This document shows, piece by piece, positions 34,146 to 51,504 of a DNA stretch of 63,777 nucleotides. The stretch is taken from positions 1-63,777 of IMG/VR virus record IMGVR_UViG_3300025013_000109. One strand, written 5' to 3'. The position numbers were made by a program, and so were the translations under genes. The first letter of the stretch is position 1; the number at the start of each line of letters is the position of its first letter. Below the pieces are notes generated by a model. The model was not told where the DNA came from. It ran no database searches and was given only the letters and a program-made list of their open reading frames with translations. Source of the stretch: a virus (taxonomy: Duplodnaviria; Caudoviricetes).

Positions 34146-34333
34146 CTCTCCTGTTAATTTTGAGCCAACACTGAATTGAGCAGACCGGAATTAGTCAAGG
34201 GCCACTTCGACACGTTCGGTTCGACTGCTTCGCGCTCACCGACCGTCTCAGTGACCGATCGAAGTGAGCTTGTATTACCCTTTACTTTTCCGGGATGCGA
34301 TCAATACCTTCGGGGCAAAATTGAGTGAGAGAG
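34146..34333 (+). promoter_or_regulatory. Long imperfect hairpin, Frpo-like ssDNA promoter A
   Basis: Arms attgagcagaccgga..gtcaaggg and ccctttacttttccgggatgcgatcaat; unpaired TACCTTCG -7 box; REP elements in the loop. Confidence 0.65.
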
Positions 34334-34472
34334 AACCTTCTGTGATTTACGATTAGCCTATTTACTATTTACAATTTGGGGTTAACAATGTGGACACCTC
34401 TGGAAACAATGTGGACACCTCGGGGCACAAAAAAAGGAGGCGTGAGCCTCCTCAGATTTGAAGTTGAAACGA

Positions 34473-34646
34473 TTAACTTCCGTAACAACTGATGTAAGCG
34501 TTGTATTCGAAAGAAACGAGTTCTTTGTCAAGCAATTCGGCTGCTCCTTCGAAATAAACCGAATCGAGATAAGTAACGAAGGCTTCCCAAAGGTTGGTAC
34601 TGTTTTCCTGAACTTCTGCGGCTGATTTTAATCTGTAAGTTTTCAT
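34473..34646 (-). CDS. 57-aa protein (not in ORF track)
   Basis: MKTYRLKSAAEVQENSTNLWEAFVTYLDSVYFEGAAELLDKELVSFEYNAYISCYGS; own hairpin upstream and terminator (34427..34452) downstream. Confidence 0.65.
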   Translation of the reverse strand: MKTYRLKSAAEVQENSTNLWEAFVTYLDSVYFEGAAELLDKELVSFEYNAYISCYGS

Positions 34647-34647
34647 A

Positions 34648-34823
34648 CTGTAGTTTTGTTAAAAATTATATGCAGTTTTTCACGGTCAAACATCTGGGGT
34701 AAACAAAGAGGAACTGGAATAACGGATCGAAGTGAGTATATGCCGGGAAAATCCTTGTTTAGGTGAAACCCTTAGCCCAGGATATTGACCGTTTCTTAGC
34801 GTGTAATTTTGCTACAAAACCAG
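34648..34823 (+). promoter_or_regulatory. Hairpin, Frpo-like element B (second family)
   Basis: cacggtcaa/ttgaccgt and aaaattatatgc/gcgtgtaatttt pairing; TAATTTTG box; core shared with element C. Confidence 0.55.
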
Positions 34824-35040
34824 AGTGGAAACACCAAATGCAGAGAGCAGTGGGCGTTGAGAAAACAGCAACGCAGGGAAGCTCACCAACCTAAGATCGG
34901 TTTATGGGGCGGCTGGAATTGCCTGTAAATATGAGATTGCTTCCCGCTTCGTGCCTCGCGGTCGCAATGACGGCCCTTCGACTGGCTCAGGGATCCGGAG
35001 CGACATAAAAAAAAGCCTTTCGGCTTTTCTTGGGTTTCAG

Positions 35041-35352
35041 TTAAAATGGAAGGTCGTCTTCGGCGGGTTTTGCTTGTTTTTTTCGTGATGGCTTTTGTGC
35101 CTTTTTTTGTTCTTCAGGACCATAGGGCTGTGTTGGGATGGCTGCCGAAACTTTGGTCTGATAATAACAGGTGTGGGTGCGTCCGAATTTGTCTTCTTGT
35201 TTCAGTTTAGCCACTTCAAATGAGAGGTACTTTACTCCGTTCTTTTCGAACACGGCTTTTTCGAGGCCTTCAACTGGTAATACAATTCTCACGATGTCGA
35301 GGTTTTCTACCTGAGTTCCTTTTCCGATGTAATGTTTTTCAAAAGTTGCCAT
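35041..35352 (-). CDS. Small protein with SSB-like acidic tail
   Basis: Start MATFEKHYIGKG at 35352; ends EDDLPF. Confidence 0.7.
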   Translation of the reverse strand: MATFEKHYIGKGTQVENLDIVRIVLPVEGLEKAVFEKNGVKYLSFEVAKLKQEDKFGRTHTCYYQTKVSAAIPTQPYGPEEQKKAQKPSRKKQAKPAEDDLPF

Positions 35353-35530
35353 AATATTGAATTTAAGGTTATAAAAAAAATTTATACCGGGTGAACTTAT
35401 TCTGAATGAGGGTGGCAATGGAGGAACTGGAATACCGGAACGTAGCGAGGATATGCCGGGAAAATCCATTGACGGGAACCACCTTGAAAGAATACACCTT
35501 TGTATATAATTTTGACTAACACTCAATATT
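35353..35530 (+). promoter_or_regulatory. Hairpin, Frpo-like element C (second family)
   Basis: TTG-20 nt-TAATTTTG in the right arm; core gaggaactggaata..atatgccgggaaaatcc shared with B. Confidence 0.6.
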
Positions 35531-35927
35531 CTGTCAACCATAGAAAATTTGCACCGGCGAATGGGTACTAAGGTAAACCGGGAGATTGGGATAGTATTGT
35601 TGCCAGGTGATGGCCTGATCGTGTTCGGTAGAATATCGGTGAAGTAACTATTGAGGCTGTGCCAACGAAACGAAGATGACCGGCGGCCCACGTTAATCAG
35701 ACCATGGCGGCGACATCAACAGCATGGTGTCCGGAACAAAAACACAAAAGGAGCGAACAAGCATTCCGGAAGATGGCCTTACCAACTGAAACTAAATGAC
35801 GAAAGGCTTTTAGGGGAGCGGTGGTTCGACTGCTCGGTTCGATACGCTTCGCTACTCACCCACCATCGGTGAGTGCGACAATTTATGAGTTAGCGAATAA
35901 AAAAGGGGAGCGTTAGCTCCCCTTTGG

Positions 35928-36305
35928 TTAAAGATTGATCAGTTCTTCAACGTCGTGCACTTTCACGTCAAGTGTCCGTTTCATTTCGTCGATCACTGAG
36001 CTGATCACTGCCGAGTTTGAAGTTTTGAACTCGTTCCCGCTTGCATCCCGCAGACTAATCACAGAACTCAGCGAATCGGCCCCGATCTGGAAGGTCTGTA
36101 ACTTCCGGCGCGAATCGTTCAACGTTTTCCACCGGTCAATCAGCATCGACAAATCTTCCACCCGCTGGATGCGTTCTTCGAGGGTCATTTTACGAGCTGC
36201 TTCTTCAACTACGTCTTTCACAACTGTCATAGTTGGAGTAACTTCTACCACTTCAACAACTTCAGCAACACTGGCTGCTTTTTCGGCATTATTTGATTTA
36301 CCCAT
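35928..36305 (-). CDS. Hypothetical protein
   Basis: 125 aa ORF with hairpin upstream and terminator (35899..35926) downstream. Confidence 0.7.
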   Translation of the reverse strand: MGKSNNAEKAASVAEVVEVVEVTPTMTVVKDVVEEAARKMTLEERIQRVEDLSMLIDRWKTLNDSRRKLQTFQIGADSLSSVISLRDASGNEFKTSNSAVISSVIDEMKRTLDVKVHDVEELINL

Positions 36306-36357
36306 AACATTTTGCCCATGCCCTTGGGTCTTATTTTGGCATCTGGCTCGCCGGTTA

Positions 36358-36570
36358 AAATTAAATTACGGGTAGTATCCATTGAGCCGGGCGGAATCTA
36401 GTCAAGGGCGAATGTCAGGTTTAACGAGTTGCGGGTTTCGGGTTACGTGTTACGAGTTAAAGGTGACCGAGTGCGAAGCAAGGTTTAGTTATGTCTATAC
36501 CGCTAAACTAAACCACTAAACCTCCCTTTACTTTTCCGGGCGGCGATCAATAACTTTATCCGGAATTTGA
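36358..36570 (+). promoter_or_regulatory. Hairpin, Frpo-like element D
   Basis: attgagccgggcgga..gtcaaggg / ccctttacttttccgggcggcgatcaataacttta. Confidence 0.6.
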
Positions 36571-36648
36571 GTGTAACTACTTTCTCCGTCATCACCGGTA
36601 AGCCTGATTTTTAGAAACAACCAAAAAAAGGGGCGAAAGCCCCTTGAG

Positions 36649-36801
36649 TTACAATCCCGGATCAGCATCTGAATACCCATCGTAAACTTCACCGTAATAA
36701 TTAAGTTCATCATCCTGATTACAGATATCTTCATCTTCATGATAGGCTGAACATACTGTACAATCACCATCCGGACGGCAACAATTTGAATTTTGAAACA
36801 T
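36649..36801 (-). CDS. 50-aa acidic Cys-containing protein (not in ORF track)
   Basis: MFQNSNCCRPDGDCTVCSAYHEDEDICNQDDELNYYGEVYDGYSDADPGL; preceded by the repeated leader motif, followed by a terminator. Confidence 0.65.
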   Translation of the reverse strand: MFQNSNCCRPDGDCTVCSAYHEDEDICNQDDELNYYGEVYDGYSDADPGL

Positions 36802-36856
36802 AGTTTTTGCCGCTGCCCTGCGGACTTATAAAGGCATCTGGCACGCCTGGTTGTTT

Positions 36857-37342
36857 TTACTGAATGAAATTTTCCTGATTAGCAAACTTTGATTCCACTT
36901 GTTCGCATCCCCATGCATCGCGCATATCTTCCATCGACATGATTTTACCTGACTTCTTGAAATATTCTCCTTTGTGCCAGTACCATGCCGTTTTCGGATG
37001 TGAGAATCGGTAACCTTCGCCTTTCAAAGTTTCCCTTACTGCGAAGGTGTTTCCGGTAATCCAGATCCATGAGCCAATCAGTTCGATTGTAATATCTGGT
37101 AAGCAGATGATCCGATCAAGCCGCTCGCGCATTTCTTCTGAAACCTGCTGCTCATATTCCTTCCTTGCTTCCGAAAAATCAGTATTACTGTTGATAAGCT
37201 TTCTTGAAAGCCGGTCATACAAATCATTGATCACCTGCATGATTGCCGTATCACCACCTTTGTCCGGGTGATACAAGAAAGCAAGGCGACGGTACTCCTT
37301 GCGCAATTCATCCAACGTCTTAACACCTTCAAAAAATTTCAT
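36857..37342 (-). CDS. J-domain (DnaJ-like) protein
   Basis: LRKEYRRLAFLYHPDKGGD (HPD motif) plus C-terminal GSWIWITGNT domain. Confidence 0.88.
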   Translation of the reverse strand: MKFFEGVKTLDELRKEYRRLAFLYHPDKGGDTAIMQVINDLYDRLSRKLINSNTDFSEARKEYEQQVSEEMRERLDRIICLPDITIELIGSWIWITGNTFAVRETLKGEGYRFSHPKTAWYWHKGEYFKKSGKIMSMEDMRDAWGCEQVESKFANQENFIQ

Positions 37343-37379
37343 AGTTTTTACCGCTGCCCTGCGGATTTATGTAGGCTGG

Positions 37380-37569
37380 CTCTCCTGTTAATTTTGAGCC
37401 AGCACCAATTGAGCAGACCGGATTCTAGTCAAGGGCGAATGTCAGTTTCGAGGCACGCAGAAAGTGACCGAGCGCGAAGCGTTGTTTATGCAAATCACAT
37501 CCGGGAAGCACAAACCCTTTACTTTTCCGGGATGCGATCAATAACTTCGGGCCAAAATTGTAGGAGAGA
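37380..37569 (+). promoter_or_regulatory. Hairpin, Frpo-like element E
   Basis: ctctcct/aggagag, aattttgagcc/ggccaaaatt, attgagca/tgcgatcaat, gtcaaggg/ccctttac pairing; TAACTTCG in a bubble. Confidence 0.65.
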
Positions 37570-38161
37570 TAATACCTCTCTGCCTGAATAGGCGCTTAGT
37601 CGGCATTCTCTTTTGGTTCTTTTCTCTGATGCCGGGCGGAAAATCTAAGTAGCAAAATCAGAGAAAAGAACGGCGCAAAATTTTCAGGCCGTAGGTGGTC
37701 CCTGAAAATTCAGATCCCGAGTACTCGGGAGATGGCGCAAGGTTCTTTTTGCCCGCTTTTTCTTACAAGAAAAAGCGTAGAGAAAGTTCTGTGCTTAGAA
37801 TCAATCTAAATAGTATTGATTTTCGCATCTAAAAAAAAGCAAAAAACTAAAATTCAAATAAATAGGTATCTAAAAGGGTGGAAAAACACCCTTCTACTTA
37901 TAGTTAATCCCGAACCGCCCTGATCGTCTTTTGTGCGCACAAGGTCAAAAATGGCGTTATATGCTGAAAGTTGCATATGTTCTGTATAGTGGAGGCTCTA
38001 TCCAAAAACCCATCGCACGGACGAAGGTAGTGCGATACCGAATGTGTTTGAAAGCAAAAAACAGGTGAATGCGAAGCACATTCTCCTGTTGTGGGTAGTG
38101 GAACAATCATTCTGAATTGAATGAAAGGATGTAATGAAATTATGAATGTTTGTGTATCGGG

Positions 38162-39817
38162 CTATTGGTTAAACACCGTTGACATTGGTATTGATGTGAC
38201 TTGCCTTGGAAAGAAGTTCAATCCAATAAACAGATCATCCCATGCATCAGTACCGTCGGTACGAAGTTCGAGCGGATCATCTTCAGTCTCTCCAAGTTTC
38301 TCGCCAGCCTTATTCTTTTCAAAACCAGTACGGCCAATTCGGATCCCACACATCTCCATTGATGGAAGCAATGCCGGATTGTTCGCCCGGTTAAACTTTG
38401 GAAACAGATACTTCCGACCCTTAAGTGAATCATCTATAACCTGATGCTTTACTTTGTGTGTCCAGGTATTGCCGATATAAACCGGTTCAACACTCCAGCC
38501 ACGGCGCGACAGTTCTTCAACAACTATCTCCTGAAAGTTTGGTGCATCTTCATCAGCATAAGCGCCATCCAATGCAGTGGAGTTGTAATAGTAGATCACA
38601 TCCTTATTGCGGATGTACTGGTAGTAGTCGCACCAATCGCGGCAGAGTTCCCTGATCTTTCGGTTGAACTTCACATACTTGCTCGATAGGGTTTTCATAA
38701 CAGGCTCAGCACGTTGGCCTGTTATGATCCAATTGATGTTTGCATTATAGTCTAATGTAATGGCTAGTGGCACTGATGGATCAATGTCACCATCCTTCAG
38801 GCAATTGTCTTCAGCAATGCGGTCAAGGTCGAGTGTGCCTTTTGCGGTCCGGAGGTTATCCAGATAAGTAGTATTGTCGGCATCATAGTAATGCACTTCA
38901 GGTGTAAGATTAGGATAGAAACCATCAGTCAGTTTGCGTATCCGTTTGTTCATGATTGAAGTCATGAAGATGACCGGCGGCAAAATAAGTTTCTGCTTTT
39001 TAATGTATTCGATACCAACTATTTCAAGGTTTTCAATGGTGTCGTATTCTTTGTACAGGAAAGCGTTTTGCCTCAGGAAAAACAGTTCGTCGCGTTGCTG
39101 TTGCATTTTCCTGACAGCATTCGCGGGCATTTCAGGCATAAACCGGTATTTGTCTTTCAGGTAATTGATATGGGCAATCGTATTTTCAATGGCCTGTATC
39201 AATTCAGGGTCCATAAGCTTTTCCTGGTCAAGTATCCATTGACCTTCTTTACTGGTTGGCATATCCGAAACAATGGTATAGCCTTTCCATTTATGGCAAC
39301 TTTCGAAGCGAGGTTCTGTGCCCGACAATGTTGGCATAACTTCCTCAAAAAGTTTTTCCTTATTGATTGATCGTCCTTCGTCAATCTTTCCCCAATCAGT
39401 TGTTAATGAGTTGGCCGAAAACCTCACGTCCTGGCTTAATAAATAAACACAAGTTCCATTATAAAAATGTATTGCCTGGTCCCAACTAACAGGTTCAACT
39501 ATCGGAAGCTTAAAGTTCATCCATTTGGGAGCTTTGCGGCCAACAAAATAATGAACATCGCGCTGATATCCGTAACGTTTCAAAAAGGCAAGGGTGTGTG
39601 ATAATGTTTTACCAAGCAACTGTTTGAAGTTGCGCTGGTAAAGAAAACCTGATGAGCCTGGCATGTTTTGAATATCGTATAATAAATCAGGACCTTCAAT
39701 GCCGTCAGATTTTCCGAAACGGCGGGCGCCAACGATACATTTACTGTTTGGGCTGATCTCGTGCACGTACATTTGTGCCGGGTTGAAATACGCTTTCTTA
39801 TTCGCTTTCTTCTCCAT
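38162..39817 (-). CDS. terL: Terminase large subunit
   Basis: Walker A GARRFGKS, Walker B KIDE, C-terminal nuclease acidic residues (ITLDYN, TDGTDAWD). Confidence 0.85.
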   Translation of the reverse strand: MEKKANKKAYFNPAQMYVHEISPNSKCIVGARRFGKSDGIEGPDLLYDIQNMPGSSGFLYQRNFKQLLGKTLSHTLAFLKRYGYQRDVHYFVGRKAPKWMNFKLPIVEPVSWDQAIHFYNGTCVYLLSQDVRFSANSLTTDWGKIDEGRSINKEKLFEEVMPTLSGTEPRFESCHKWKGYTIVSDMPTSKEGQWILDQEKLMDPELIQAIENTIAHINYLKDKYRFMPEMPANAVRKMQQQRDELFFLRQNAFLYKEYDTIENLEIVGIEYIKKQKLILPPVIFMTSIMNKRIRKLTDGFYPNLTPEVHYYDADNTTYLDNLRTAKGTLDLDRIAEDNCLKDGDIDPSVPLAITLDYNANINWIITGQRAEPVMKTLSSKYVKFNRKIRELCRDWCDYYQYIRNKDVIYYYNSTALDGAYADEDAPNFQEIVVEELSRRGWSVEPVYIGNTWTHKVKHQVIDDSLKGRKYLFPKFNRANNPALLPSMEMCGIRIGRTGFEKNKAGEKLGETEDDPLELRTDGTDAWDDLFIGLNFFPRQVTSIPMSTVFNQ

Positions 39818-40403
39818 TGCTCACCTCGGTATAACTGACCTCTTCAACTTGTACACCATATTTTTTCCGGAGTTTTGCCTGAATTTCTTTCAAATTTGCG
39901 ATAGGTTTTCTGCCGATAACCGAAACGTCGGTTGATGGCTCCAGGTCGAGTGGTACAATATCTTCCCAGGGCAGCGCTTCCGATTCATCTTTATCCAATT
40001 TGTTCACTTTTACCAGGGCCTGACCGGCACGGATCATGGCTTCGGCCTGTTTTACCTCCAGCAAACTTTCTGCATCAACGGCCATCTTATAACCTTCTCG
40101 GATCATGTGGTTTGCCGTGTGCCGGTGAAATTCGCGGCTAACGCTTTTCACGTTTCCTATTAATATTTTTACCCGTGGAAGATCGCGGTAAGCTGTTGAT
40201 TGGCTTACATCATAAGTTTCCGTGATGTAATTAATCATTTCACTGTCGTTTTTCTCCGGATGGGCAAGCCAGTGAACGTAAGCATCCCTGAGGCGGATGA
40301 TCATGTTTTGTTCGTCGGCATCAAAATGAACGGGGAGTTCAGATTGATCATCAAACAGGTATTTGTTGCACTTTTCCAGAAAACTATCGGTCTCTTTTTG
40401 CAC
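39798..40403 (-). CDS. Putative terminase small subunit
   Basis: HTH-like YDVSQSTAYRD; overlaps terL start. Confidence 0.6.
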   Translation of the reverse strand: MQKETDSFLEKCNKYLFDDQSELPVHFDADEQNMIIRLRDAYVHWLAHPEKNDSEMINYITETYDVSQSTAYRDLPRVKILIGNVKSVSREFHRHTANHMIREGYKMAVDAESLLEVKQAEAMIRAGQALVKVNKLDKDESEALPWEDIVPLDLEPSTDVSVIGRKPIANLKEIQAKLRKKYGVQVEEVSYTEVSNGEESE

Positions 40404-40680
40404 GGCGTTCGGCTAAGGTTTGTTGAGTGATCATTTGTTTGGCCATTTCTTCAGCCTGAGGGCTTCCATGTTTAGCCATTTTCACAATGTTAGTGTGGAT
40501 ATCCTTTTTGCTTTCAGTTTTTCCCCGGAAATAAGCGTTCCATATATTGCCTTTTTTTTTCCGGATATCGTTCATAAATTCAGCTTCGTCTAGATCCAGC
40601 AAAATGGCTATTTCTTCAGGCTCCAGGAATATTCCCGAAAACGATTCAATTTCTTTGAGTTGTACTTCAGTTAAATTCAT
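40384..40680 (-). CDS. Small HTH-like packaging-module protein
   Basis: 98 aa, EEIAILLD..AYFRGK..AKHGSPQA; overlaps neighbours. Confidence 0.6.
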   Translation of the reverse strand: MNLTEVQLKEIESFSGIFLEPEEIAILLDLDEAEFMNDIRKKKGNIWNAYFRGKTESKKDIHTNIVKMAKHGSPQAEEMAKQMITQQTLAERRAKRDR

Positions 40681-41173
40681 CCGGAGTTACTTTTAAACTT
40701 TCAGCATACCAGGTTTCGTAATGGATTAACATTGATTGATAATGCCAGGGATTGGTAATGATTACACCGGCTTCTTTTTTGTCGTTGATGTTCAGGTTCG
40801 CGCTGGTGATGACAAGCACTTTCCAATTCTCGTTTTCGATGAAAACCAATTTTGCATGAATGTTCGTCATCCCAATTTCGCTAACAACATTCGACGCGAA
40901 AAAGAGCAATCCAACACGGTACCGCTTTACGCTCAGGTCGAACAGACAGGTAAGCGATGTGATCATGCCTGATTCCTGAAGGTGCAGAAAACTCCGGATA
41001 GCAGTTTCGGTAATCGAAAACGAACTGATCCGGACTATGGCAGGCCCTGTCTGATCCAACAAATGGGCAATCAGCTCATGGGTCGAAAAATCAGCATCCG
41101 AAACGTATGGGATTGTGCTGTCAGGCTTAAGCCGTATTGAAATCTGATTTTTCAATGTCTTCGGTATAATCAA
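40667..41173 (-). CDS. Phospholipase D-like (HKD) nuclease
   Basis: IHAKLVFI..ITSANLN..E motif; true start may be slightly downstream. Confidence 0.75.
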   Translation of the reverse strand: MIIPKTLKNQISIRLKPDSTIPYVSDADFSTHELIAHLLDQTGPAIVRISSFSITETAIRSFLHLQESGMITSLTCLFDLSVKRYRVGLLFFASNVVSEIGMTNIHAKLVFIENENWKVLVITSANLNINDKKEAGVIITNPWHYQSMLIHYETWYAESLKVTPDEFN

Positions 41174-41882: not shown

Positions 41883-41887
41883 GTTAT

Positions 41888-44363: not shown

Positions 44364-44393
44364 AGTAGTTCCTCCTTTTTTAGATTTTTTAGA

Positions 44394-45449
44394 TTATACT
44401 CCGAGATCTGCACCCGAGCCGGTGTAATCTCCTGAAAGTTCATTACCAGTTACTGAACCATCGCTGATCATGAATCCGTTTTTGTTCAGATTTTTGATAC
44501 GCATACCAATTTCAAACTGGTTCCAGAACTGTACTTCGTTAGGATCTTCGAAAGGTGAACGGACCTGAACAAAACCGGCATCGCCGAAAGTGTTCATACC
44601 CAAATCGAGGTTACCAGGTTGGGTAAGCATCAGGCGATCTCCAATACCCAAACAGTAGTGCGATACAATCTGCAAATTAGGAATTCCGGCATCTTCCTGC
44701 AGCTGGGTGAGCAAGCTGGCAAAAGTCACATCCTTGTACGATGTTTTTTTGTTTTCCAGCGAATCTTTCACGTTGATCAGCGAATTGTAAGGAATATACA
44801 GAACGGCAGGTTTCTGACGCCATTTTGGATAGATGTTACGCAACCAGTCGCGAAGGCTGTTGAAAGCAGTCAGGTCAGTTGCATTGGCAGGAGCAGTCAA
44901 ATCACCGCAGGCAACCAGGTTACCTTTGGCTTCAGAAATGTCACCGGCAACAATCTCTGCATCGGCAAGGGTATAGAAACCATTGGCCATACCTTGTGGG
45001 GTTTGGTCGGCTACATTACGAACTGCATGGAAAAGGCAGTCGATAATATCTTCACCAACAGTGGTAATAATGTCGGCAATAATATCGCGTTCGAGCGGAT
45101 GTTGTTTGCTTTGATTATTAACCTTGTTTTTTGCAGCATCGAACAATACCTGTTTGGTACTGTAATTCGTAATGTTGTCCCGAATAGGAGCAACAGCACG
45201 GTAGGTTTGCAATTCGCGTTCGATCAAACGTGAAATTTCGTTTTTGTAGTTTATCGTTCCGGCCACGTATGGACGGGCAGCGCCGCCAGCACGTTCTTTC
45301 ACAATCACAATGTCTTTATTGTTCACCTCAAGCATCGAGATTTTAAGCTCTTGCAATACAGGAATCAATACAGCATAAGGGAGCAGCATGAAATCTTTCT
45401 GATAAGTTACAGCTGCCCTTTGTAGTCCGCTAATATTTACAGCATCCAT
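44394..45449 (-). CDS. Major capsid protein
   Basis: 351 aa directly after protease/scaffold; size and position typical. Confidence 0.75.
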   Translation of the reverse strand: MDAVNISGLQRAAVTYQKDFMLLPYAVLIPVLQELKISMLEVNNKDIVIVKERAGGAARPYVAGTINYKNEISRLIERELQTYRAVAPIRDNITNYSTKQVLFDAAKNKVNNQSKQHPLERDIIADIITTVGEDIIDCLFHAVRNVADQTPQGMANGFYTLADAEIVAGDISEAKGNLVACGDLTAPANATDLTAFNSLRDWLRNIYPKWRQKPAVLYIPYNSLINVKDSLENKKTSYKDVTFASLLTQLQEDAGIPNLQIVSHYCLGIGDRLMLTQPGNLDLGMNTFGDAGFVQVRSPFEDPNEVQFWNQFEIGMRIKNLNKNGFMISDGSVTGNELSGDYTGSGADLGV

Positions 45450-45457
45450 TATATAAA

Positions 45458-46852
45458 TTATTTAAGGGTTTTACCAAGGTATTCCTGTGATACAGCTTCG
45501 AGCTGTGAACCAAGGTCTTCGTGTTTAGAACTTACCGCGCCAGGTTTTACTGCGCCATCAACGTCTTGTTCTGTAACAGCAATGGCAGCTTGTTCGGCTG
45601 GTCCTGCTTTGAGGGTAGCGATTTCGCCCTGTAACGAGGCGATAGCCTGGTCGCGTTCGGTAACCAACTGTTCAGCGGCCGTTGCGGCCTCCTGGGCAGT
45701 TTGCAAACTGGCTTCAGCAGCAAGTCTGGCCGAATTTTCCAGTTCAAGTTGGTGTTCCAGTTCGGCTGAACCGGGTTCACCAATAGCAGTTTCGAGCGCC
45801 GTCATTTCATCTTCGGTGAAAGTGCGGCGACCATCGGCTTCGAATTCAAGTGAATCCTGGGCCAGGGCGGATTGGATTTTTGGAAACTTCATGGATGACT
45901 TAATTTTTGAATTATTATTTTCCGTCTGACCTCCTGAATTGGAAGCAGGGATTTCTTTTTTAGTGTAGTTGGCCAGCTCAATCACGCGGTTAACGGCATC
46001 GTCAAAACTTCCGATCCGGTCAACCAGTGAGCCTATCACTTCACCGGCCTGGAATGTGCGTCCATGCAGATGCTTATCTTCCACTCCCGAAAGTTGAGCC
46101 TTCATGTCGTTCACAAATTGAATCATATGAGGATTCAGTATTCTTTCTTTGGCAAGTTTGAAATCGAATTCATTAATGGCCGTTTCATATTCCTCGTTTT
46201 TTTCGAAAGCATCATCGGCATAAATGGTTACCTCGCGTTCTTTCATCATGTCTTCATCGCTTTTCGCAATGCGGCCCGAATAAACCAACATGGTACCAAT
46301 GCAACCAACCAGGTCGGTTGGTCTGGATGCAATACGCTCATTTGCAAACGCGCCAACATACATGTGCGCGCTGGCCATCATGCCATCGACCCACACTACA
46401 ATTGGTTTGGTACATTTCTGTATGGCATCGGTTAATTCCGGCACGGCATTGGCAGCACCACCCGGTCCTTCAATAATCATTACATGGCCAATTACCGATT
46501 CATCGTTATCAGCATTTATCAGCCTGCGGGCTAATGTTCTGGATCCAACCGGACCACATATCATATCGTTCTTCATCAGTACGCCACGTACCGGTAGTAC
46601 ATGCACTACTTTTTCGTAAGTAGGCTCATCAACTTCCGGAGCGTCATCGTCCTCGTCATCGTCCCAATAACTGGCGACTGGAGTAAGGGTGTTGGCTGAA
46701 ATGGCAAAAGGAATATTTTCTTTGGGTTCTGTTTCTTCAACAATCATGGCGCCGCCCAGCATCCCGCGAACGATTGGCATATATTGCTGTAATCCTCGTG
46801 CATGCAAATACCAGGGTGAACCAAAAATGTCTTTCGCGATAGAGTATTGCAT
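45458..46852 (-). CDS. S49-family prohead protease with C-terminal scaffold
   Basis: GPGG, MMASAHM, VGCIGT motifs; acidic coiled-coil C-terminus; start MQYSIAK at 46852. Confidence 0.88.
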   Translation of the reverse strand: MQYSIAKDIFGSPWYLHARGLQQYMPIVRGMLGGAMIVEETEPKENIPFAISANTLTPVASYWDDDEDDDAPEVDEPTYEKVVHVLPVRGVLMKNDMICGPVGSRTLARRLINADNDESVIGHVMIIEGPGGAANAVPELTDAIQKCTKPIVVWVDGMMASAHMYVGAFANERIASRPTDLVGCIGTMLVYSGRIAKSDEDMMKEREVTIYADDAFEKNEEYETAINEFDFKLAKERILNPHMIQFVNDMKAQLSGVEDKHLHGRTFQAGEVIGSLVDRIGSFDDAVNRVIELANYTKKEIPASNSGGQTENNNSKIKSSMKFPKIQSALAQDSLEFEADGRRTFTEDEMTALETAIGEPGSAELEHQLELENSARLAAEASLQTAQEAATAAEQLVTERDQAIASLQGEIATLKAGPAEQAAIAVTEQDVDGAVKPGAVSSKHEDLGSQLEAVSQEYLGKTLK

Positions 46853-46913
46853 AGTTGTAGCTTTTAAGCATACAACTTTACAATAGAACAAAGGGTAAAT
46901 AAAGGACTAAAGG

Positions 46914-47378
46914 CTATGGAAGGTCTGTAATTACAGGTGATTCGCTGATTGAACTGCCGGTCAAATTCACCATTATGGCATTAATTGAAGTTATTTGCCC
47001 CGGAATTTGTTTTTTTCTCAAAATTCTGACCGGAAAAACCAAAAAACTGGTATTATTCATATCGGTAACCAAAGCGGCATTCTTCCGGTTTTCGAAGGTT
47101 TTAAGCCCCGCGATGATTTCAGACCTGATTTTTGGAATCTGGATGTTAATTTCCTTTTTCCATACACTTCCGGCATTGGTCCTGTCTTCATTTTCACTGA
47201 ACGATCCGGTATCGGGAGTAAAGTATATCTCCTGAAATGCGCTGCCTGAATTAAAACTTAGATCATTGAAACTAATTTCACCGGCTAAAGGCTCGGGTAT
47301 TGTAAGCAAGTCGTCAAGTGCAATCAAACTGATATAACTTATACCTCCCAGGTTTTGGCATTCAGGTGCTGTGTTCAT
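46914..47378 (-). CDS. Hypothetical protein, tail-tube-like N-terminus
   Basis: NLGGISYI resembles NMGGLRSI of 43818..44363. Confidence 0.55.
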   Translation of the reverse strand: MNTAPECQNLGGISYISLIALDDLLTIPEPLAGEISFNDLSFNSGSAFQEIYFTPDTGSFSENEDRTNAGSVWKKEINIQIPKIRSEIIAGLKTFENRKNAALVTDMNNTSFLVFPVRILRKKQIPGQITSINAIMVNLTGSSISESPVITDLP

Positions 47379-47446
47379 GATGGCTGTTTTTTCTAATATA
47401 TATCACTGTATTTGATCTGCATTTTAGAAAAATATTTTTCGGATTG

Positions 47447-47971
47447 TTAAGCTGTTGATAATCTTTGTCTTAATATTCGCTTCGACCGTTCGCGTATCTC
47501 CGACTTTGTTTTTCGGTAGTCACGTTTTTTGATTTGGTCGAAGTTTGCTGTATTCATCCGCTGGTTTAAAATATCCAAAACCGATTCAATAATATCGAGC
47601 TGGCAAAGATTCATCGCATATCCATCCTGAAAGAAAACGTCAATCCATTTATTAAAAAATACCTCGATGCGGTCAATAATTTGCTCCTGGTCTTCCCTGC
47701 TAATATACACATACATGGTCTCCAGCGAGTACCAATTGTGAGGGGTTCGCGGTATCAGGATGTGAACAGGATTTTCGGACGGGATATGGTCAGGTGGCTT
47801 GGTCGATTTCGATAGAAAAGCATTGATCAGTTTCCCAAATTCGGTTTTTCTGGTCACTACTATTTCGGTCTGATCTTTGGGAGTTTCGGTAGCAAAGCGC
47901 AGAAAGGCTTCGAGAATGGGCGGAATATCGATAACTACTGAGGGCTTAATCGGTTGATTTTTATCGGACAT
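47447..47971 (-). CDS. Hypothetical protein at the early/late boundary (candidate late regulator)
   Basis: 174 aa, basic helical C-terminus; function inferred from position only. Confidence 0.55.
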   Translation of the reverse strand: MSDKNQPIKPSVVIDIPPILEAFLRFATETPKDQTEIVVTRKTEFGKLINAFLSKSTKPPDHIPSENPVHILIPRTPHNWYSLETMYVYISREDQEQIIDRIEVFFNKWIDVFFQDGYAMNLCQLDIIESVLDILNQRMNTANFDQIKKRDYRKTKSEIRERSKRILRQRLSTA

Positions 47972-48156
47972 ACGGAAATATTCATGGGTTAAAGGTTGAC
48001 TCTTAAAACCGGTGAATGAAGCGGACTAATATACATATAAAAATAGATATAGACTTGAATATTTATAAACTATTTCTCCGGACTGAATTAAAAAAGCCAG
48101 ACCCCGAGTGCTCGGAGTATCTGGCTGCGGTTGAGATGGTTTCAGCATCTAATCAT

Positions 48157-48417
48157 TTATCGCCCCCACTTTCTTTTGCCTGGGAAGTATATTGACTTTT
48201 TATCATCTGGCAAATTCATTCCTTGCCCTGCAACTTTCTGTATCAATTCAGGTGATAATATTTCGTCAGGCTTAAGAAATTTATAGCCTGAACATGGTCG
48301 GGTTGTGCAATACGATGCTCTTACCCATCCTAACTCATTTTCTTGCCATAATACTGCAACTTCCGAAATTTTGTTGTCTTCGTAGACTTGATGTACTTCG
48401 ATAATTTTGTAGCTCAT
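48157..48417 (-). CDS. Hypothetical protein
   Basis: 86 aa; followed by terminator-like hairpin 48089..48126. Confidence 0.6.
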   Translation of the reverse strand: MSYKIIEVHQVYEDNKISEVAVLWQENELGWVRASYCTTRPCSGYKFLKPDEILSPELIQKVAGQGMNLPDDKKSIYFPGKRKWGR

Positions 48418-48455
48418 AATTTTTGTTTTAAAAAGGTTTTATAATGGTATTGAAT

Positions 48456-48674
48456 CTATACTCCTATCCGTATCGGTCTCCTGGGTACCGGATAAACAAA
48501 TACTGCCAGCGCTTCAGTTTTGTTATCCGCAATAGTCTGGCCGGTTACCTGGTACCACTGCCCATGCTGTTCGATGTATTGACCGTTCATGATCAGGCTG
48601 CATTCCTGGCTGAACAGGTAATTGCCCACGGTAGGTGCTAACTGTTCGTTGCTGGTGTAAAAATCTACTTTCAT
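48456..48674 (-). CDS. Hypothetical protein
   Basis: 72 aa, 4-bp overlap with the MTase stop. Confidence 0.6.
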   Translation of the reverse strand: MKVDFYTSNEQLAPTVGNYLFSQECSLIMNGQYIEQHGQWYQVTGQTIADNKTEALAVFVYPVPRRPIRIGV

Positions 48675-50455
48675 ACGGCTATTTTATTATAATATATTTC
48701 AATGGCTTTACTATTGCTTTTTACCAATGCTTTGGCAACTACCGGAACTACAGCATTTCCGATAAACTTCTTTTGCTCAGTTTGAGTGCCTTCTAGCTTA
48801 TATCCATCCGGAAAACCCTGAATTCTCAGGAGCTCGTCAATGATCAGCATCCGCATTTTTATATCTACGATTCCGTAAATGGCCATGAACATCCTGATCT
48901 TTTGCATCGTTGCACATTCGCGTTCAAAGATTGGCATGGCGAAGATCTTCCCGGAACTGGCGGCAACAATGTATGGTGGCATTTTATCCATTCTGGCAAT
49001 TAAAGTAAAGCAAGGTTTATCAAGTGATCCTCCTTTATTGGCATATTGTGGATTCAGTAAAAAATGTTCTGCTGATATCAGATTTAATTTGGGGTTGCTG
49101 GTAATCGTTCCTGCCGGTTCTTCAATGCTCGATGGTTTTGAGTGGCCATATTGTTGGTCCATAAAGTTTATGGTAGTCAGTCGTTGTTTAGGTACTCCTG
49201 TAATGGTTGGGTTTGGTTGTTCAATGCTGCCCAGCTGTCCGCCGCCTGAATAATAGTTCTGAATAAACTGCGATTCAATCTTTGCAACCCGTTCTTTGGT
49301 GGTGATGGTTGGGCAAGGATCATCCAATGAAGTGTTGAATCCATTGCCATAATAATGACTCAGGAAAACTGCTGAATGGCTGTCTTTCGTGGTGATGGAT
49401 CCAGCCGGTTGATTAACTGATATGTTCTTGCTTTCCGGATGGCCGGAATAATACTTCGAAAGGAAAACTGACTTAATCAATCCATGTCGGTTACTGGTGG
49501 CAATTGCTCCCAATGGGTTCAATACCGATTTCGATTTCTCTTTCATATCGCCACCGTTGTAACGGATGGTAAATAGATCTTCACCACCGGCAACGAACTT
49601 GACCAGACCGGCATAAATACGCTCCAGTGTTTTTTCTGAGAGTGGTTTCTTTCGGGTAAATATGCTCCGGCCTTCGTCTTCCAGATCGAGTACTTCGCGC
49701 ACGGGTTTCCATTTGGCTTTGGCGCCGAATAATCCACCATGATCAGGAGACTTTGAATGTGTTGTTTCAGGCCATTTCATGGGTAGTCCAATCTTTGCAA
49801 ATTGCCCGAAATACCTTTCTCGGCTGGTATATGCTCCGTGATCGGCTGAATTGATCAGCTGGTAATCGTACTGATATCCGTAACTGCATAATTCTTTAAT
49901 CCAGCGCAGGTAATCGCGGCCATTCAGTTTTGATATCGGACGGCCTTTTTCGTCCAAAGGGCCCCAACTCATAAATTCCCGAACATTTTCGATGTACACG
50001 TAATCGGGCTGCAATTCTTCGATGTACATAAACAGGGCATGTGCCAGGGTTCGGCTGTCGGCATCGCGGGGTAAACCGCCTTTGGCTTTACTGTAGTTGG
50101 TACATTCCAGACTGGCCCACAGGTTAATCACGCATTCCGGAAATTGCGACCGTAATTCGGCAACCAGGTTACTCAGGGCAACAACTACTTTAAAGTCGCG
50201 AACATCTTCAACAAAGTGCATGCAGTCTGGATGGTTGTGCCAGTGACTCATCAGCGCATTGTGATCGTGGTTCACACAGGCCACAACCTTTACATTTTCC
50301 AATCCGGCCAGATGGATACCTGTTGTAGTTCCGCCAGCTCCGGCAAATAAATCGATCCAGAAGATCATTCGTCCATTGGCCACATCGTAACCTTTATTTA
50401 GGTGCAACATCAACGGGCCTAACTTTATTTCTTCGAATAGGTGTTGTGGTTTCAT
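48671..50455 (-). CDS. C5-cytosine DNA methyltransferase
   Basis: DLFAGAGG (I), ASLECTNYS (IV), IENVREF (VI), TSRERYF (VIII), RIQGFP, IGNAV (X). Confidence 0.92.
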   Translation of the reverse strand: MKPQHLFEEIKLGPLMLHLNKGYDVANGRMIFWIDLFAGAGGTTTGIHLAGLENVKVVACVNHDHNALMSHWHNHPDCMHFVEDVRDFKVVVALSNLVAELRSQFPECVINLWASLECTNYSKAKGGLPRDADSRTLAHALFMYIEELQPDYVYIENVREFMSWGPLDEKGRPISKLNGRDYLRWIKELCSYGYQYDYQLINSADHGAYTSRERYFGQFAKIGLPMKWPETTHSKSPDHGGLFGAKAKWKPVREVLDLEDEGRSIFTRKKPLSEKTLERIYAGLVKFVAGGEDLFTIRYNGGDMKEKSKSVLNPLGAIATSNRHGLIKSVFLSKYYSGHPESKNISVNQPAGSITTKDSHSAVFLSHYYGNGFNTSLDDPCPTITTKERVAKIESQFIQNYYSGGGQLGSIEQPNPTITGVPKQRLTTINFMDQQYGHSKPSSIEEPAGTITSNPKLNLISAEHFLLNPQYANKGGSLDKPCFTLIARMDKMPPYIVAASSGKIFAMPIFERECATMQKIRMFMAIYGIVDIKMRMLIIDELLRIQGFPDGYKLEGTQTEQKKFIGNAVVPVVAKALVKSNSKAIEIYYNKIAV

Positions 50456-50727
50456 AGGCGGTCGTATAGAGGTTCTGTTAATTTCAAAATTGACCGCTCT
50501 AATCCTTCCAGATAATAAAGCAATTTGTAATTGCCTTCGATCCCGAGCTCCTTACTTCTTTTCAATATCCGTTCATCTTCAATCTTTTTCCAATAGGCAT
50601 CCATTTCAAGTCTATATTGAAGAAGTTCGTCATAATGTTCTTCAAAGCCTTCTGTTAGTTCGATGTCCCAACACGGATCACATCTCCAGTCGGTTTTTAA
50701 ATCGAGTAATTCTTGTTTTGTTTTCAT
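50452..50727 (-). CDS. Hypothetical protein
   Basis: 91 aa, W..DPCWDIE.TEGFEEH motif; coupled overlaps. Confidence 0.65.
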   Translation of the reverse strand: MKTKQELLDLKTDWRCDPCWDIELTEGFEEHYDELLQYRLEMDAYWKKIEDERILKRSKELGIEGNYKLLYYLEGLERSILKLTEPLYDRL

Positions 50728-51095
50728 AGATTAATTGTTAATTGAATTGGTTTATTCCTGTTTTTATATGCCAATTGACTTGCCTTAAAACGCTTGTTTG
50801 TTTCAAATTGTCCGACTGCCTCCCAGGTAGTATGATACTTTACAAAACAATTACCACACAAACACTGGTTGGTATAATGTTTAATGTAATGTGCACCGCA
50901 TTTATAGCAGTTATCATCCACGTAATTGTAATTCTCCCAATGATCAATCATCCAGATTGAACCTGGTTTGGGAATTACATCTTCCTGTCGTTCAAGAAAC
51001 TTGCCGATCAGATACGCTTCATCTATTCTGAACTGTTTGCAGTCCTCTTCAGTAATCAGAGCTTGCCTGCACCAATTGTGGTCGTATGAAATCAT
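50724..51095 (-). CDS. Zinc-finger-like hypothetical protein
   Basis: CYKC..CLCGNC; coupled overlaps. Confidence 0.6.
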   Translation of the reverse strand: MISYDHNWCRQALITEEDCKQFRIDEAYLIGKFLERQEDVIPKPGSIWMIDHWENYNYVDDNCYKCGAHYIKHYTNQCLCGNCFVKYHTTWEAVGQFETNKRFKASQLAYKNRNKPIQLTINL

Positions 51096-51364
51096 AGTTT
51101 CTGATTTTTAGGTGTTAATTCCATCGCAATACGGCCAGATATTACATCTTTTAAACCTCGTTTTTTATTCAGCAATGCTTTTAATTTCTGAAGTTTAAGC
51201 AAATCATTGATCATATTCAGTTCGTTCATTAATTGTTCAGGTTCTGCTATTGCCGGATAAACTTCGCCGTCCTGGTCTACCTGATCGTTACTTAATACAT
51301 TAATCCAAACAACCAGTTCGTCGTTCTTAATCATGCTTAATCCGAGTACGCTTTCGTGTTTCAT
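51092..51364 (-). CDS. Hypothetical protein
   Basis: 90 aa; first gene after hairpin element F. Confidence 0.6.
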   Translation of the reverse strand: MKHESVLGLSMIKNDELVVWINVLSNDQVDQDGEVYPAIAEPEQLMNELNMINDLLKLQKLKALLNKKRGLKDVISGRIAMELTPKNQKL

Positions 51365-51386
51365 AATTTTTACGTTTTAGGTGAAA

Positions 51387-51504
51387 CTTAATTTTAGCTT
51401 CCTGATCATTGAGCAGTGCCGGATTCTGTCAAGGGTAGCTGGGTGGAGCAGCTTCGTTCCCCTTGACTTTTCCGGGATGCGATCAATAACTTTGCGCAAT
51501 TAAG
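51387..51504 (+). promoter_or_regulatory. Hairpin, Frpo-like element F (compact copy)
   Basis: attgagcagtgccgga..gtcaaggg / cccTTGacttttccgggatgcgatcaaTAACTTTG, consensus TTG-21-TAnnTTTG. Confidence 0.65.

Follow-up and report, generated by a model that had tools for sequence, protein, structure and literature searches.

The closest known systems to the elements considered here are the single-stranded DNA (ssDNA) promoters Frpo1 and Frpo2 of F, ssi1-3 of ColIb-P9 (class 1), and the class 2 and class 3 elements of pESBL. In the published descriptions, the folded strand of Frpo/ssi is the template of the downstream genes (PMC9849209; PMC11541004; PMC12672017), and each of the six leading-region operons of pESBL, that of an orphan methyltransferase included, has its own hairpin ssDNA promoter (PMC12672017). 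As described there, Frpo/ssi share with the hairpins analysed here as family 1 an imperfect stem-loop of one strand with promoter boxes in duplex form, the arrangement of one element per operon with several in a row, and a cargo of anti-restriction genes, orphan methyltransferases and toxin-antitoxin-like genes. Frpo/ssi are also described as inactive once the DNA is duplex, and the same is proposed for family 1. There are also differences. Frpo arms are about 150 nt long whereas those of family 1 are about 55 nt, with no sequence similarity, and the boxes of family 1 are of the Bacteroidota type (TTG/TAnnTTTG) whereas Frpo/ssi use TTGACA/TATAAT. Frpo/ssi lie in the conjugative leading region near oriT, whereas family 1 is found in tailed prophages and small chromosomal islands and is described here from in silico analysis. 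When folded here, the T strand upstream of ssb in F formed a hairpin some 330 nt long (-110 kcal/mol, z -7.4); a sigma-70 scan of this hairpin found no boxes, and the comparison with Frpo therefore rests on the published descriptions. A family-1 copy compared by blastn with PLSDB (72,556 plasmids, F included) gave no match.

The window (the whole 63,777-nt stretch of DNA that was analysed) contains a tailed prophage with an integrase, tape measure, tail protein, head protease, terminase-like protein and DnaG-type primase. The phage integrase (positions 1-1149) is the only recombinase seen, and a cassette array is placed between the terminase-like gene and a 468-aa gene. The original prediction counted six Frpo-like hairpins in this window, of which the four assigned to family 1 lie where predicted; the two of family 2 exist but are not retained as Frpo-like.

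Family-1 hairpins and their cassettes

The four family-1 copies are real and far beyond chance:

34147..34336, + strand folds: family-1 hairpin, subtype a, loop of 78 nt, covariance model match of 88.7 bits
36354..36582, + strand folds: family-1 hairpin, subtype b, loop of 117 nt, covariance model match of 89.9 bits
37381..37573, + strand folds: family-1 hairpin, subtype a, loop of 81 nt, covariance model match of 95.7 bits
51381..51515, + strand folds: family-1 hairpin, subtype c, minimal loop of 26 nt, covariance model match of 120.3 bits

Folding as ssDNA bears out four long imperfect hairpins (z -2.1 to -4.8). The copies at 34, 36 and 37 kb reach -32.5, -32.8 and -30.3 kcal/mol (z -2.66, -2.13 and -2.20), with 4-5 of 200 shuffles folding equally well, and the copy at 51 kb reaches -24.9 kcal/mol (z -4.82), equalled by none of 200 shuffles. 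Loops were rightly said to vary, from 26 to about 160 nt across the family. Conservation of the arms had been claimed for both families; it holds for family 1, whose 25-nt right-arm core occurs four times, always on the + strand (expected 0.00), but in family 2 a central core is conserved instead. The claim of REP inserts in the loops is loosely right, as stretches of 19-69 nt that recur on the genome's other contigs are present in three of the four window loops and in two inter-cassette spacers. This genome has 10 family-1 covariance model matches, with at least six copies beyond the window on other contigs.

Each window cassette has a terminator at its end, and the genes and sites that accompany the hairpins are as follows:

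33108..33127, - strand: terminator-like site ending the SymE/methyltransferase cassette
33179..33925, - strand: N6 DNA methyltransferase-like protein, 248 aa (PF02384, 1e-11), in the SymE/methyltransferase cassette of the 34 kb hairpin
33929..34108, - strand: SymE-like small protein (PF08845, 7e-14), the gene nearest to the 34 kb hairpin, with its ATG at 34108
35928..36305, - strand: 125-aa coiled-coil protein, following the 36 kb hairpin
36857..37342, - strand: J-domain protein, 161 aa (phrog_15863, 2e-35; PF00226, 3e-6, at 27.7 bits just below the cut-off of 27.8), following the 37 kb hairpin
48671..51364, - strand: 51 kb operon of 90-, 123- and 91-aa ORFs, then a C5 DNA methyltransferase (48671-50455, PF00145, 6e-28)
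34434-34453, 35011-35028, 35902-35925 and 36628-36645: further terminator-like sites
37351..37364, - strand: 4-bp hairpin with loop AGGGCA on the gene strand, 7-8 nt before the ATG
34117-34130 and 36315-36328: further small hairpins with AGGGCA loops

A 50-aa ORF is also downstream of the 37 kb hairpin. The AGGGCA-loop hairpin has at least 10 Watson-Crick stem variants plus U.G on the gene strand, and its sequence variation suggests that it is probably an mRNA 5'UTR element.

The covariance model retrieved 147 distinct family-1 copies from Bacteroidota prophages and viral and metagenome contigs, with pairing and orientation kept. After removal of 13 copies at locus edges, 134 were scorable, and in 128 of these an ORF starting with ATG lies on the opposite strand, at 3-118 nt from the 5' arm; none of the 147 is flipped. 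Distances from hairpin to start codon are fixed (16, 38-42 or 46-49 nt). The subtype goes with the downstream gene and is co-inherited with it; subtype b, for example, stands before the 125-aa family regardless of the upstream neighbour. The 125-aa coiled-coil protein is the commonest cargo (41 of 128 first genes), and methyltransferases, RadC (19), DUF6573 (24), SLOG (10), ArdC (2), SymE-like (4) and J-domain proteins are found across the family, a cargo that by analogy resembles plasmid leading regions. The elements had been suggested to belong to the phage, but they are not confined to it: other arrays sit in chromosomal islands that carry restriction-modification genes and have no genes of phage type in the vicinity.

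A selfish palindromic repeat of MITE- or REP-like type, with no role in expression and a box arising by chance in AT-rich DNA, would account for the many copies per genome (10 matches here), for loops that take insertions and contain short dispersed repeats, and for the ease with which exact TAnnTTTG arises by chance (28 on the + strand of the whole window). It is nevertheless a very improbable explanation. Such a repeat would not be expected to keep a single orientation to the gene (128/134) or to be co-inherited by subtype with downstream genes; family 1 is confined to cassette arrays rather than scattered over the chromosome, only 4 of 151 genomes of the order carry any copy, and positions 5-8 of the box are kept while its nn positions and the facing strand vary.

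Pairing, folding strand and the box on the 3' arm

Pairing was scored on alignments fitted to the + strand model, in which 93.0% of cells pair among 55 distinct copies, versus 24-46% when the partners are slid, and compensatory changes are seen at 13 of 30 pairs. In an independent metagenome set of 97 distinct copies, 94.1% pair and 14 of 30 pairs are compensatory; none of 500 shuffles reached any measure in either set, although these counts overstate independence because the copies are related, and templated mutation within quasi-palindromes is able to mimic covariation. Both basal and inner helices covary and, judging from the alignments, the family-1 hairpin is selected for pairing. At paired columns G.T outnumbers A.C by 84:15 and 132:18 in the two sets (39:15 and 60:18 without the first pair), and of 138 copies, 115 under DNA parameters and 128 under RNA parameters have the lower minimum free energy for the whole element on the + strand. 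By these models the folding strand is the +, the template of the adjoining gene. In family 1 the folded strand is always the template of the adjoining gene, as the published descriptions have it for Frpo/ssi.

Promoter-like boxes on the right arm had been predicted on the + strand, facing away from the gene, and are present in all four window copies:

34305..34312, + strand: -7-like box TACCTTCG in the 3'-arm bubble of the 34 kb hairpin, from sequence and box profile
36551..36558, + strand: -7-like box TAACTTTA of the 36 kb hairpin
37542..37549, + strand: -7-like box TAACTTCG of the 37 kb hairpin
51463..51494, + strand: TTG (51463-51465), 21 nt and TAACTTTG (51487-51494), a full match to the Bacteroidota promoter consensus

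The last had been singled out as the best case, which it is, and in duplex DNA TTG-21-TAACTTTG is directed away from the gene. The -7 box had also been placed in a mismatch bubble; the window boxes do lie in columns left unpaired by the consensus structure, and in three of four copies the box is not an exact TAnnTTTG. Base counts for the box, from 136 of 143 distinct copies, are T129 A130 n n T129 T131 T102/C29 G120/A14, with both n positions free to vary, positions 5-8 having been part of no search pattern. The box is exact in 91 of the 136, and the 6 nt that follow it show no conservation. Information on the 5'-arm side of the bubble is 0.3-0.8 bits per column versus 1.1-2.0 on the 3' side. 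In the host genome TAnnTTTG occurs 360 times at 20-49 nt before ATGs versus 64 in controls (5.6-fold); TAnnTTTA is enriched 3.4-fold before host genes, and TAnnTTCG, which makes up 19 of 102 strict-pattern boxes, only 1.6-fold. By sequence, the conservation profile of the 3'-arm bubble is that of the host's own -7 consensus. The layout on the 3' arm is cTTG-N21-TAnnTTTG, of which the host check covers the -7 box; the -33 element could not be validated there.

Duplex DNA offers another account, which we consider unlikely: the + strand box would drive divergent or antisense RNA, and the inverted repeat would be an inverton or a protein-binding repeat homogenised by recombination or templated repair. 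Bacteroidota commonly carry invertons, in which, as in family 1, a promoter flanked by inverted repeats is in one state directed away from the gene; if the segment between the basal repeats were inverted, the box would come to stand before the gene, and the junction would be identical to that made by folding. The box is moreover a good host promoter in duplex DNA, and repeat homogenisation is able to mimic covariation. Unlike invertons, however, family 1 has no flipped copy among 147, its arrays have no invertase, and its entire interior is self-complementary and covarying; one crossover site cannot account for covariation in both inner and basal helices. Neither the strand-specific G.T bias nor the better + strand fold is predicted by duplex DNA, and loops of 26 to about 160 nt speak against a spaced protein site. 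A divergent promoter would also find no + strand gene to its right, where an ORF is present in only 12 of 147 copies, 11 of these being 43-66 aa.

An RNA element, that is, a 5' leader on the gene strand (such as a processive antiterminator, a stabiliser or a riboregulator) transcribed from an upstream promoter or by read-through, is also improbable: the gene strand folds worse in those same 115 (DNA) and 128 (RNA parameters) of 138 copies, and the mismatch A.C, to which G.U would correspond on the gene strand, is less common than G.T. None of the 48 copies scored has an exact TAnnTTTG on the gene strand over the 150 nt past the hairpin, a stretch where the terminator of the upstream gene is often located. 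Rfam 15 gave no match at gathering score in the window and none even at E<=1 in 34100-37650. The hairpin does lie immediately before the start codon, the second leader hairpin with its AGGGCA loop and gene-strand U.G looks mRNA-like, and there is a precedent in the pLS20 establishment genes, described as controlled from a duplex promoter with antitermination (PMC6294495).

Closer to the gene, 31 of 45 copies, all of subtype a, lack TAnnTTT[GA] on the gene strand over the 130 nt nearest the ATG. In subtype b, TAATTTTA lies on that strand at 58 nt upstream of the ATG, and in one copy of subtype c TAAGTTTA lies at 26 nt; for the 14 of 45 copies with gene-strand boxes, a conventional promoter is thus possible. 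The box on the 3' arm points away from the gene and can serve it only if the + strand folds alone.

A proposed promoter for single-stranded DNA

Pairing, folding strand, box, orientation, scarcity of gene-strand boxes and cargo together lead us to read family 1, with a slight balance of probability in favour, as a promoter analogous to Frpo/ssi that works only on ssDNA and is suited to the housekeeping sigma factor of Bacteroidota. Once the + strand, which the cassette gene has as its template, becomes single-stranded, the two arms of about 55 nt would pair, the -33-like TTG and 21-nt spacer would become duplex, and TAnnTTTG on the 3' arm would stay unpaired in the bubble, like a pre-melted promoter. 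RNA polymerase would start near the top of the basal stem and use the 5' arm and then the adjoining gene as template, with predicted - strand mRNA 5' ends at about 51390 and 37393. In duplex DNA the box faces away from the gene and the cassettes would be silent. Support in silico covers pairing, folding strand, box, orientation rule, terminators and cargo; polymerase binding, start site and above all the occasion of + strand ssDNA are what we infer.

We know of no ssDNA stage of a tailed dsDNA prophage. Conjugative mobilisation had been suggested, but neither the PF03432 relaxase nor the PF12696 coupling protein, the two families searched, was found in the 92%-complete genome. From GC skew and ORF bias of the flanks, the window + strand would be the leading-strand template in host replication, a weak indication that it is not exposed there. 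The + strand could become single-stranded during displaced-strand or rolling-circle replication, at the 51 kb copy when the origin melts, or, in the islands without phage genes, on entry as ssDNA. A wider proposal, which we put forward tentatively and regard as somewhat doubtful, is that in Bacteroidota temperate tailed phages, and in related small islands, the template strand of the accessory array is single-stranded at some stage, and that anti-defence, methylase and toxin-like morons are fired only then by hairpin promoters for the host sigma factor. If true, phages would have an equivalent of the zygotic induction of conjugative plasmids, and the copy beside the origin could double as a primer promoter for replication.

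Priming leads to a further alternative, that of a single-strand initiation site at which RNA polymerase, recruited by the folded + strand, would make primers for synthesis of the complementary DNA strand, gene expression being incidental. The sso of rolling-circle plasmids (ICEBs1 has one) and the M13 minus-strand origin are strand-specific hairpins with promoter-like boxes used by host RNA polymerase. The anatomy would be identical to that of a promoter, and in 1997 Masai and Arai reportedly described Frpo as doing both. The 51 kb hairpin, 16 nt from the ATG of the operon ending in the C5 methyltransferase, is also about 200 nt from an iteron/AT-rich region. We nonetheless hold this alternative to be quite improbable: the primers of sso and M13 are unlinked to a start codon, whereas priming would leave unexplained why start-codon distances are fixed in 128 of 134 copies, why the leader is conserved, why subtype is linked to gene and why five elements occur in 3.4 kb, and the phage has its own DnaG-type primase.

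The ssDNA promoter proposed for family 1 can also be set beside other hairpins and cassettes. The early promoters of phage N4 are DNA hairpins in a dsDNA phage, helped by SSB, with stems of 5-7 bp and 3-nt loops extruded from supercoiled duplex and used by the virion RNA polymerase; family 1 differs in its 55-nt arms, loops of 26 to about 160 nt and host-sigma box. Integron attC sites, which separate small cassettes, are likewise imperfect hairpins specific to one strand of ssDNA, and they too have bulges and a terminal loop that varies. However, attC belongs to the preceding ORF whereas family 1 is linked to the following gene and conserves its sequence, not its shape alone, and no IntI-type integrase was found beside family-1 arrays. 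Phage morons resemble the cassettes as autonomous promoter-gene-terminator units inserted between phage genes, but use ordinary duplex promoters, unlike family 1 as proposed.

Family 2

The two remaining elements of the window belong to family 2:

34648..34823, + strand: family-2 element before the 57-aa ORF at 34473-34646
35353..35530, + strand: family-2 element before the 103-aa ORF at 35041-35352

These hairpins fold weakly (z -2.4 and -2.0, respectively). As Frpo-like promoters they fail the family-wide test, the + strand box being present in only 6 of 27 distinct relatives, and the six elements of the window thus reduce to four that are well supported. TAnnTTT[TA] is found on the gene strand 14-32 nt before the ATG in 18 of the 27 family-2 relatives.

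Hairpins and cassettes in the prophage

The window corresponds to the minus strand of contig C92 (21959-85735) in a 4.99-Mb, 92%-complete genome, and nearly all of its long ORFs lie on the - strand. The element carrying it is a tailed temperate prophage, the publicly named relatives of which are MAGs of Prolixibacteraceae, Bacteroidales and Odoribacter. The four family-1 elements were found where the original prediction had placed them, and folding makes each a long imperfect hairpin as ssDNA. The 25-nt right-arm core common to family 1 occurs four times, always on the + strand, against 0.00 occurrences expected. Repeat finding with 9-nt seeds missed these hairpins because their pairing is too imperfect.

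Features of the window
1-1149, integrase
13773-17993, tape measure protein
22150-23565, tail protein
33108-33127, terminator-like site closing a cassette
34147-34336, + strand, family-1 hairpin, subtype a
34434-34453, terminator-like site closing a cassette
34648-34823, family-2 element before a 57-aa ORF
35011-35028, terminator-like site closing a cassette
35353-35530, family-2 element before a 103-aa ORF
35902-35925, terminator-like site closing a cassette
36354-36582, + strand, family-1 hairpin, subtype b
36628-36645, terminator-like site closing a cassette
37381-37573, + strand, family-1 hairpin, subtype a
38162-39817, terminase-like 551-aa protein; its closest neighbours in the Atlas are terminase clusters (0.99; in one scoring 0.98, 25% of members have Terminase_6N)
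45458-46891, head maturation protease
51381-51515, + strand, family-1 hairpin, subtype c (51 kb copy)
52323-56258, DnaG-type primase, 1311 aa

In all four family-1 copies the hairpin ends 16-48 nt from a - strand start codon. With hairpins or elements close to start codons and a terminator for each cassette, the region at 33-38 kb resolves into five autonomous units in a row, in each of which one or two genes follow an upstream element and are closed by a terminator. As first genes, the units carry a SymE-like gene (followed by an N6-MTase), the 57-aa ORF, the 103-aa ORF (its product matched no Atlas family), a 125-aa coiled-coil gene and a J-domain protein gene. Downstream of the 51 kb copy there are three small ORFs and then a C5-MTase. 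Relatives of the window phage carry the array between the terminase-like gene and a 468-aa gene; for the 551-aa and 468-aa proteins, PDB sequence searches yielded no useful match.

Several smaller features accompany the array. A 17-nt direct repeat, AACAATGTGGACACCTC, is present in two copies 4 nt apart (34384-34400 and 34405-34421) between the terminator and the 34 kb hairpin, and looks like an operator. Subtypes a and b carry on the gene strand, 7-8 nt before the ATG, a 4-bp hairpin with the loop AGGGCA (34117-34130, 36315-36328, 37351-37364), set within a conserved leader, GAGCCAG..GCC.A.ATAA.TCC. Since its stem occurs in at least 10 Watson-Crick variants and contains U.G pairs on the gene strand, this small hairpin resembles an mRNA element. 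Two genes at 29774-32668, one glycosyltransferase-like (626 aa) and one for a nucleotide-sugar epimerase, separate the array from the 468-aa gene; they were not seen at the equivalent position in the related contigs that were compared.

An AT-rich, iteron-bearing region at about 51.7-52.3 kb, directly after the primase gene, is a likely replication origin (51700-52260). It adjoins the repeats GCGTGACCCA (at least 4 copies) and CGCGGGAA, and the inverted pair TCCCGCGTTCCCGCG / CGCGGGAACGCGGGA, 284 nt apart, lies in the same region. The prophage also has two RVT_1 reverse transcriptase genes (20714-21694 and 60352-61425), which may belong to diversity-generating retroelements. The second matches phrog_1423 (1e-133) and comes after two paralogous small ORFs (61558-61965, 61971-62435); the two reverse transcriptases align to one stretch of another locus, L009, with 46% and 84% identity.

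Pairing, folding strand and orientation of family 1

A covariance model of family 1 was built on 11 short-loop copies. Set 1, with 59 matches of which 55 are distinct, comes from the window, the remainder of its genome, contigs of IMG/VR and genome records of Bacteroidota; set 2 adds 103 matches, 97 of them distinct, in 80 metagenome loci. A loose pattern search of genome contigs returned 117 stretches, mostly chance matches in unrelated phyla, from which a stricter motif kept about 17 elements, in Bacteroidota records. Pairing is found in 93.0% of cells in set 1, against 24-46% with slid partners, with compensatory changes in 13 of 30 pairs, and in 94.1% of cells in set 2, with compensatory changes in 14 of 30 pairs; these numbers overstate independence because the copies share ancestry and were aligned by fitting to the model, yet the slid-partner controls retain that relatedness and fail. 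None of 500 shuffles reached any of five measures in set 1, and the result was again 0/500 in set 2. Compensatory changes are spread over the basal helix, the two-pair helix beside the bubble and the inner helices. As originally described, loop length varies, from 26 nt up to about 160 nt, and the arms are fixed.

Wobbles of the + strand (G.T) exceed those of the - strand (A.C) at paired columns, by 84:15 in set 1 and 132:18 in set 2, and by 39:15 and 60:18 when the nearly invariant first pair is dropped; the contrast is weaker when counted per column (13 vs 9 and 16 vs 9). Of 138 distinct copies, 115 have their lower whole-element MFE on the + strand when DNA parameters are used (the difference averages -5.2 kcal/mol) and 128 when RNA parameters are used, and the arms alone favour the + strand in 30/39 and 33/39. 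Judged from these sequence comparisons, the + strand is therefore the folding strand of family 1, and it serves as template for the adjacent gene. This counts against the hairpin as an mRNA leader structure, a reading that we consider improbable.

An ORF with an ATG on the opposite strand begins 3-118 nt from the 5' arm in 128 of 147 distinct elements, with distance modes at 16, 38-42 and 46-49 nt. Of the other 19, 13 lie at locus edges and six are without such an ORF; four of these six were inspected and turned out to have an alignment cut short, an ORF that is short or decayed, or a start codon visible after all. No flipped copy was found among the 147 distinct elements, which argues against an inverton; that family 1 is an inverton or another element acting in duplex DNA is unlikely. 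The inverton, the attC site, the MITE and the 5'UTR RNA were each considered as readings of family 1 and rejected.

Promoter-like boxes in family 1 and family 2

Host use of the Bacteroidota -7 consensus was checked first, on 2,915 ORFs of at least 200 aa.

Host counts of -7-like boxes on the sense strand, 20-49 nt before the ATG, and in the control
Box, before ATG, control
TAnnTTTG, 360, 64
TAnnTTTA, 211, 62
TAnnTTCG, 46, 28
TAnnTTTC, 59, 55

Family 1 holds this box at a fixed place on the 3' arm. Column counts over 136 of 143 distinct copies are T129 A130 n n T129 T131 T102/C29 G120/A14, with the exact TAnnTTTG in 91/136, and the remaining seven copies show the same box by eye. The n positions vary (AC 63, CC 30, AA 16, CA 8, others) and the next six bases are unconserved. 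Because the search patterns fixed positions 1-2 of the box and left 5-8 free, the conservation of TTTG beside a variable nn matches the consensus without bias from the search. In the family-1 consensus structure the box is unpaired, which bears out its predicted position in a bubble, and the 5'-arm side of the bubble facing it is poorly conserved (0.3-0.8 bits vs 1.1-2.0 on the box side). In the paired part, 21 nt upstream of the box, there is a TTG (CCCTTGAC in 87 of the 102 copies matched strictly), and the host promoter profile gave no validation of a -33 element. Three of the four window copies have weaker box variants (TACCTTCG, TAACTTTA, TAACTTCG), and only the 51 kb copy has the exact one.

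Promoters of the ordinary kind were looked for on the gene strand. An exact TAnnTTTG within 150 nt beyond the 3' arm was found in 0/48 copies, and many copies have the terminator of the upstream gene there instead. No gene-strand TAnnTTT[GA] is present within 130 nt of the ATG in 31 of 45 copies, all subtype a. The other 14 carry one, which in subtype b is TAATTTTA or a variant at 58-59 nt (one at 78 nt) and in one subtype c copy is TAAGTTTA at 26 nt, and for these a conventional promoter in the basal stem is possible. A + strand RNA covering both arms would have to start from a promoter in the gene or in its 16-49 nt leader, and none that starts before the basal helix was seen there.

The regions upstream of 60 RadC relatives in viral contigs (L331-L390, 53 scorable) were surveyed for independent hairpin families with this geometry. 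An exact reverse-strand TAnnTTTG is present in about 30/53 loci, and a gene-strand TAnnTTTG in 5/53, none at the usual 20-60 nt. The boxes inspected here, other than family-1 copies, are not within comparable hairpins; L363 offers one possible case, with an uncertain gene start.

The original prediction counted six Frpo-like elements. The observation holds for the four of family 1, and the two of family 2 are unsupported as Frpo-like, because a + strand TAnnTTTn box is present in the right arm of only 6/27 copies and a gene-strand TAnnTTT[TA] lies 14-32 nt before the ATG in 18/27. The exact TAnnTTTG is limited to 4/27, namely the two window copies and two close relatives; TAnnTTTT is weakly enriched in the host (157 vs 110). 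The family-2 core (GAGGAACTGGAATAnCGGA ... ATATGCCGGGAAAATCC) was found in 55 IMG/VR stretches, with 27 distinct full copies scorable. About 65 nt long (34705-34770 and 35418-35485 in the window; L164-L208 elsewhere), it is nearly invariant over these 27 viral-contig copies, and its fold has two invariant G.T pairs on the + strand and one covarying pair; the outer arms of the element are variable. Family 2 mostly precedes homologues of the 103-aa protein, and its core parts ACTGGAATACCGG and CCGGGAAAA resemble the family-1 inner arms, on the other side of the loop.

A candidate ssDNA promoter, its cargo and its spread

An ssDNA promoter accounts most simply for the covarying hairpin on the + strand, the host -7 box within its conserved 3'-arm bubble, the fixed orientation and the terminators upstream. 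We regard family 1 as a candidate of this kind, on balance the probable and the best-supported explanation. In the publications consulted, ssDNA promoters are described for conjugative elements only, mostly enterobacterial plasmids (PMC9849209, PMC11541004, PMC12672017). Frpo/ssi fold on the transferred strand into stem-loops that rebuild -35/-10 boxes, and keep leading-region genes expressed up to synthesis of the complementary strand (PMC9849209, PMC11541004). In pESBL, such hairpins stand at all six leading-region operons, including one with an orphan MTase, and comprise three unrelated classes with mapped start sites (PMC12672017). In the F plasmid (NC_002483), the ssb-upstream region of the T strand folds as a hairpin of about 330 nt, located to the 3' side of the template of the gene; a sigma-70 scan of this region found no boxes and did not reproduce the published box positions. 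Family 1 has the topology and the kind of cargo in common with these promoters; sequence, size, sigma motif and genomic setting differ.

No report placing ssDNA promoters in phages or Bacteroidota was found in the literature, leaving aside supplementary material such as the Frpo candidate lists of PMC11541004 and Fig. S3 of PMC12672017. If family 1 works as read, it would be a fourth, unrelated class of ssDNA promoters, for a different sigma factor, and would imply that a tailed-phage lineage passes through a single-stranded stage not recognised so far, or couples expression to replication. The element is short, well defined and amenable to direct testing.

Conjugative mobilisation, the first exposure route suggested, found no support, as neither a PF03432 relaxase nor a PF12696 coupling protein was detected in the 92%-complete genome; both searches matched Bacteroides thetaiotaomicron among the controls. 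GC skew is positive in the prophage flanks, and their ORFs are biased to the contig's + strand, so the window + strand would be the leading-strand template during host replication, which weakly disfavours exposure there. The + strand could instead be exposed by a fork moving against the genes or by rolling-circle displacement. Origin melting might expose the 51 kb copy, whose transcript would then also be in position for priming leftward synthesis; a role of family 1 as a priming site is in itself improbable.

First genes behind family-1 hairpins
First gene, count
125-aa coiled-coil protein, 41
DUF6573, 24
RadC-like JAB, 19
J-domain 161-aa protein, 16
YspA/SLOG, 10
SymE-like, 4
90-aa protein, 3
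ArdC (ArdcN + zincin peptidase), 2

The remaining first genes are singletons, and the window adds MTases. If the ssDNA-promoter reading is true, the 125-aa coiled-coil, DUF6573, J-domain, SLOG and RadC proteins would be candidate early anti-defence functions.

The elements had been taken to belong to the phage. The array is indeed present in relatives of the window phage, but many metagenome loci have cassettes without its other genes, and one three-cassette array (L212:3400-7400) has a histidine kinase on one side, an AraC regulator on the other and no phage gene close by. A selfish repeat is a very improbable reading of family 1. A Pfam tally of 101 large neighbouring ORFs contains, among the 25 listed of 123 families, restriction-modification, four phage integrases and plain chromosomal genes. 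Family 1 is sparse, with a copy in 4 of 151 genomes sampled across the order, and had no match among 72,556 plasmids (PLSDB), 50,697 GenBank phages or Rfam.

The L212 cassettes carry a coiled-coil gene, a SLOG gene, and DUF6573 with a SymE-like and a zinc-ribbon ORF; a methylase-like fragment adjoins the array. ArdC serves conjugative plasmids as an antirestriction factor and is said to bind ssDNA. At another locus (L291:1739-2596), an ArdC-type antirestriction gene (ArdcN 1e-30, MPTase-PolyVal 4e-34) lies directly behind a family-1 hairpin.
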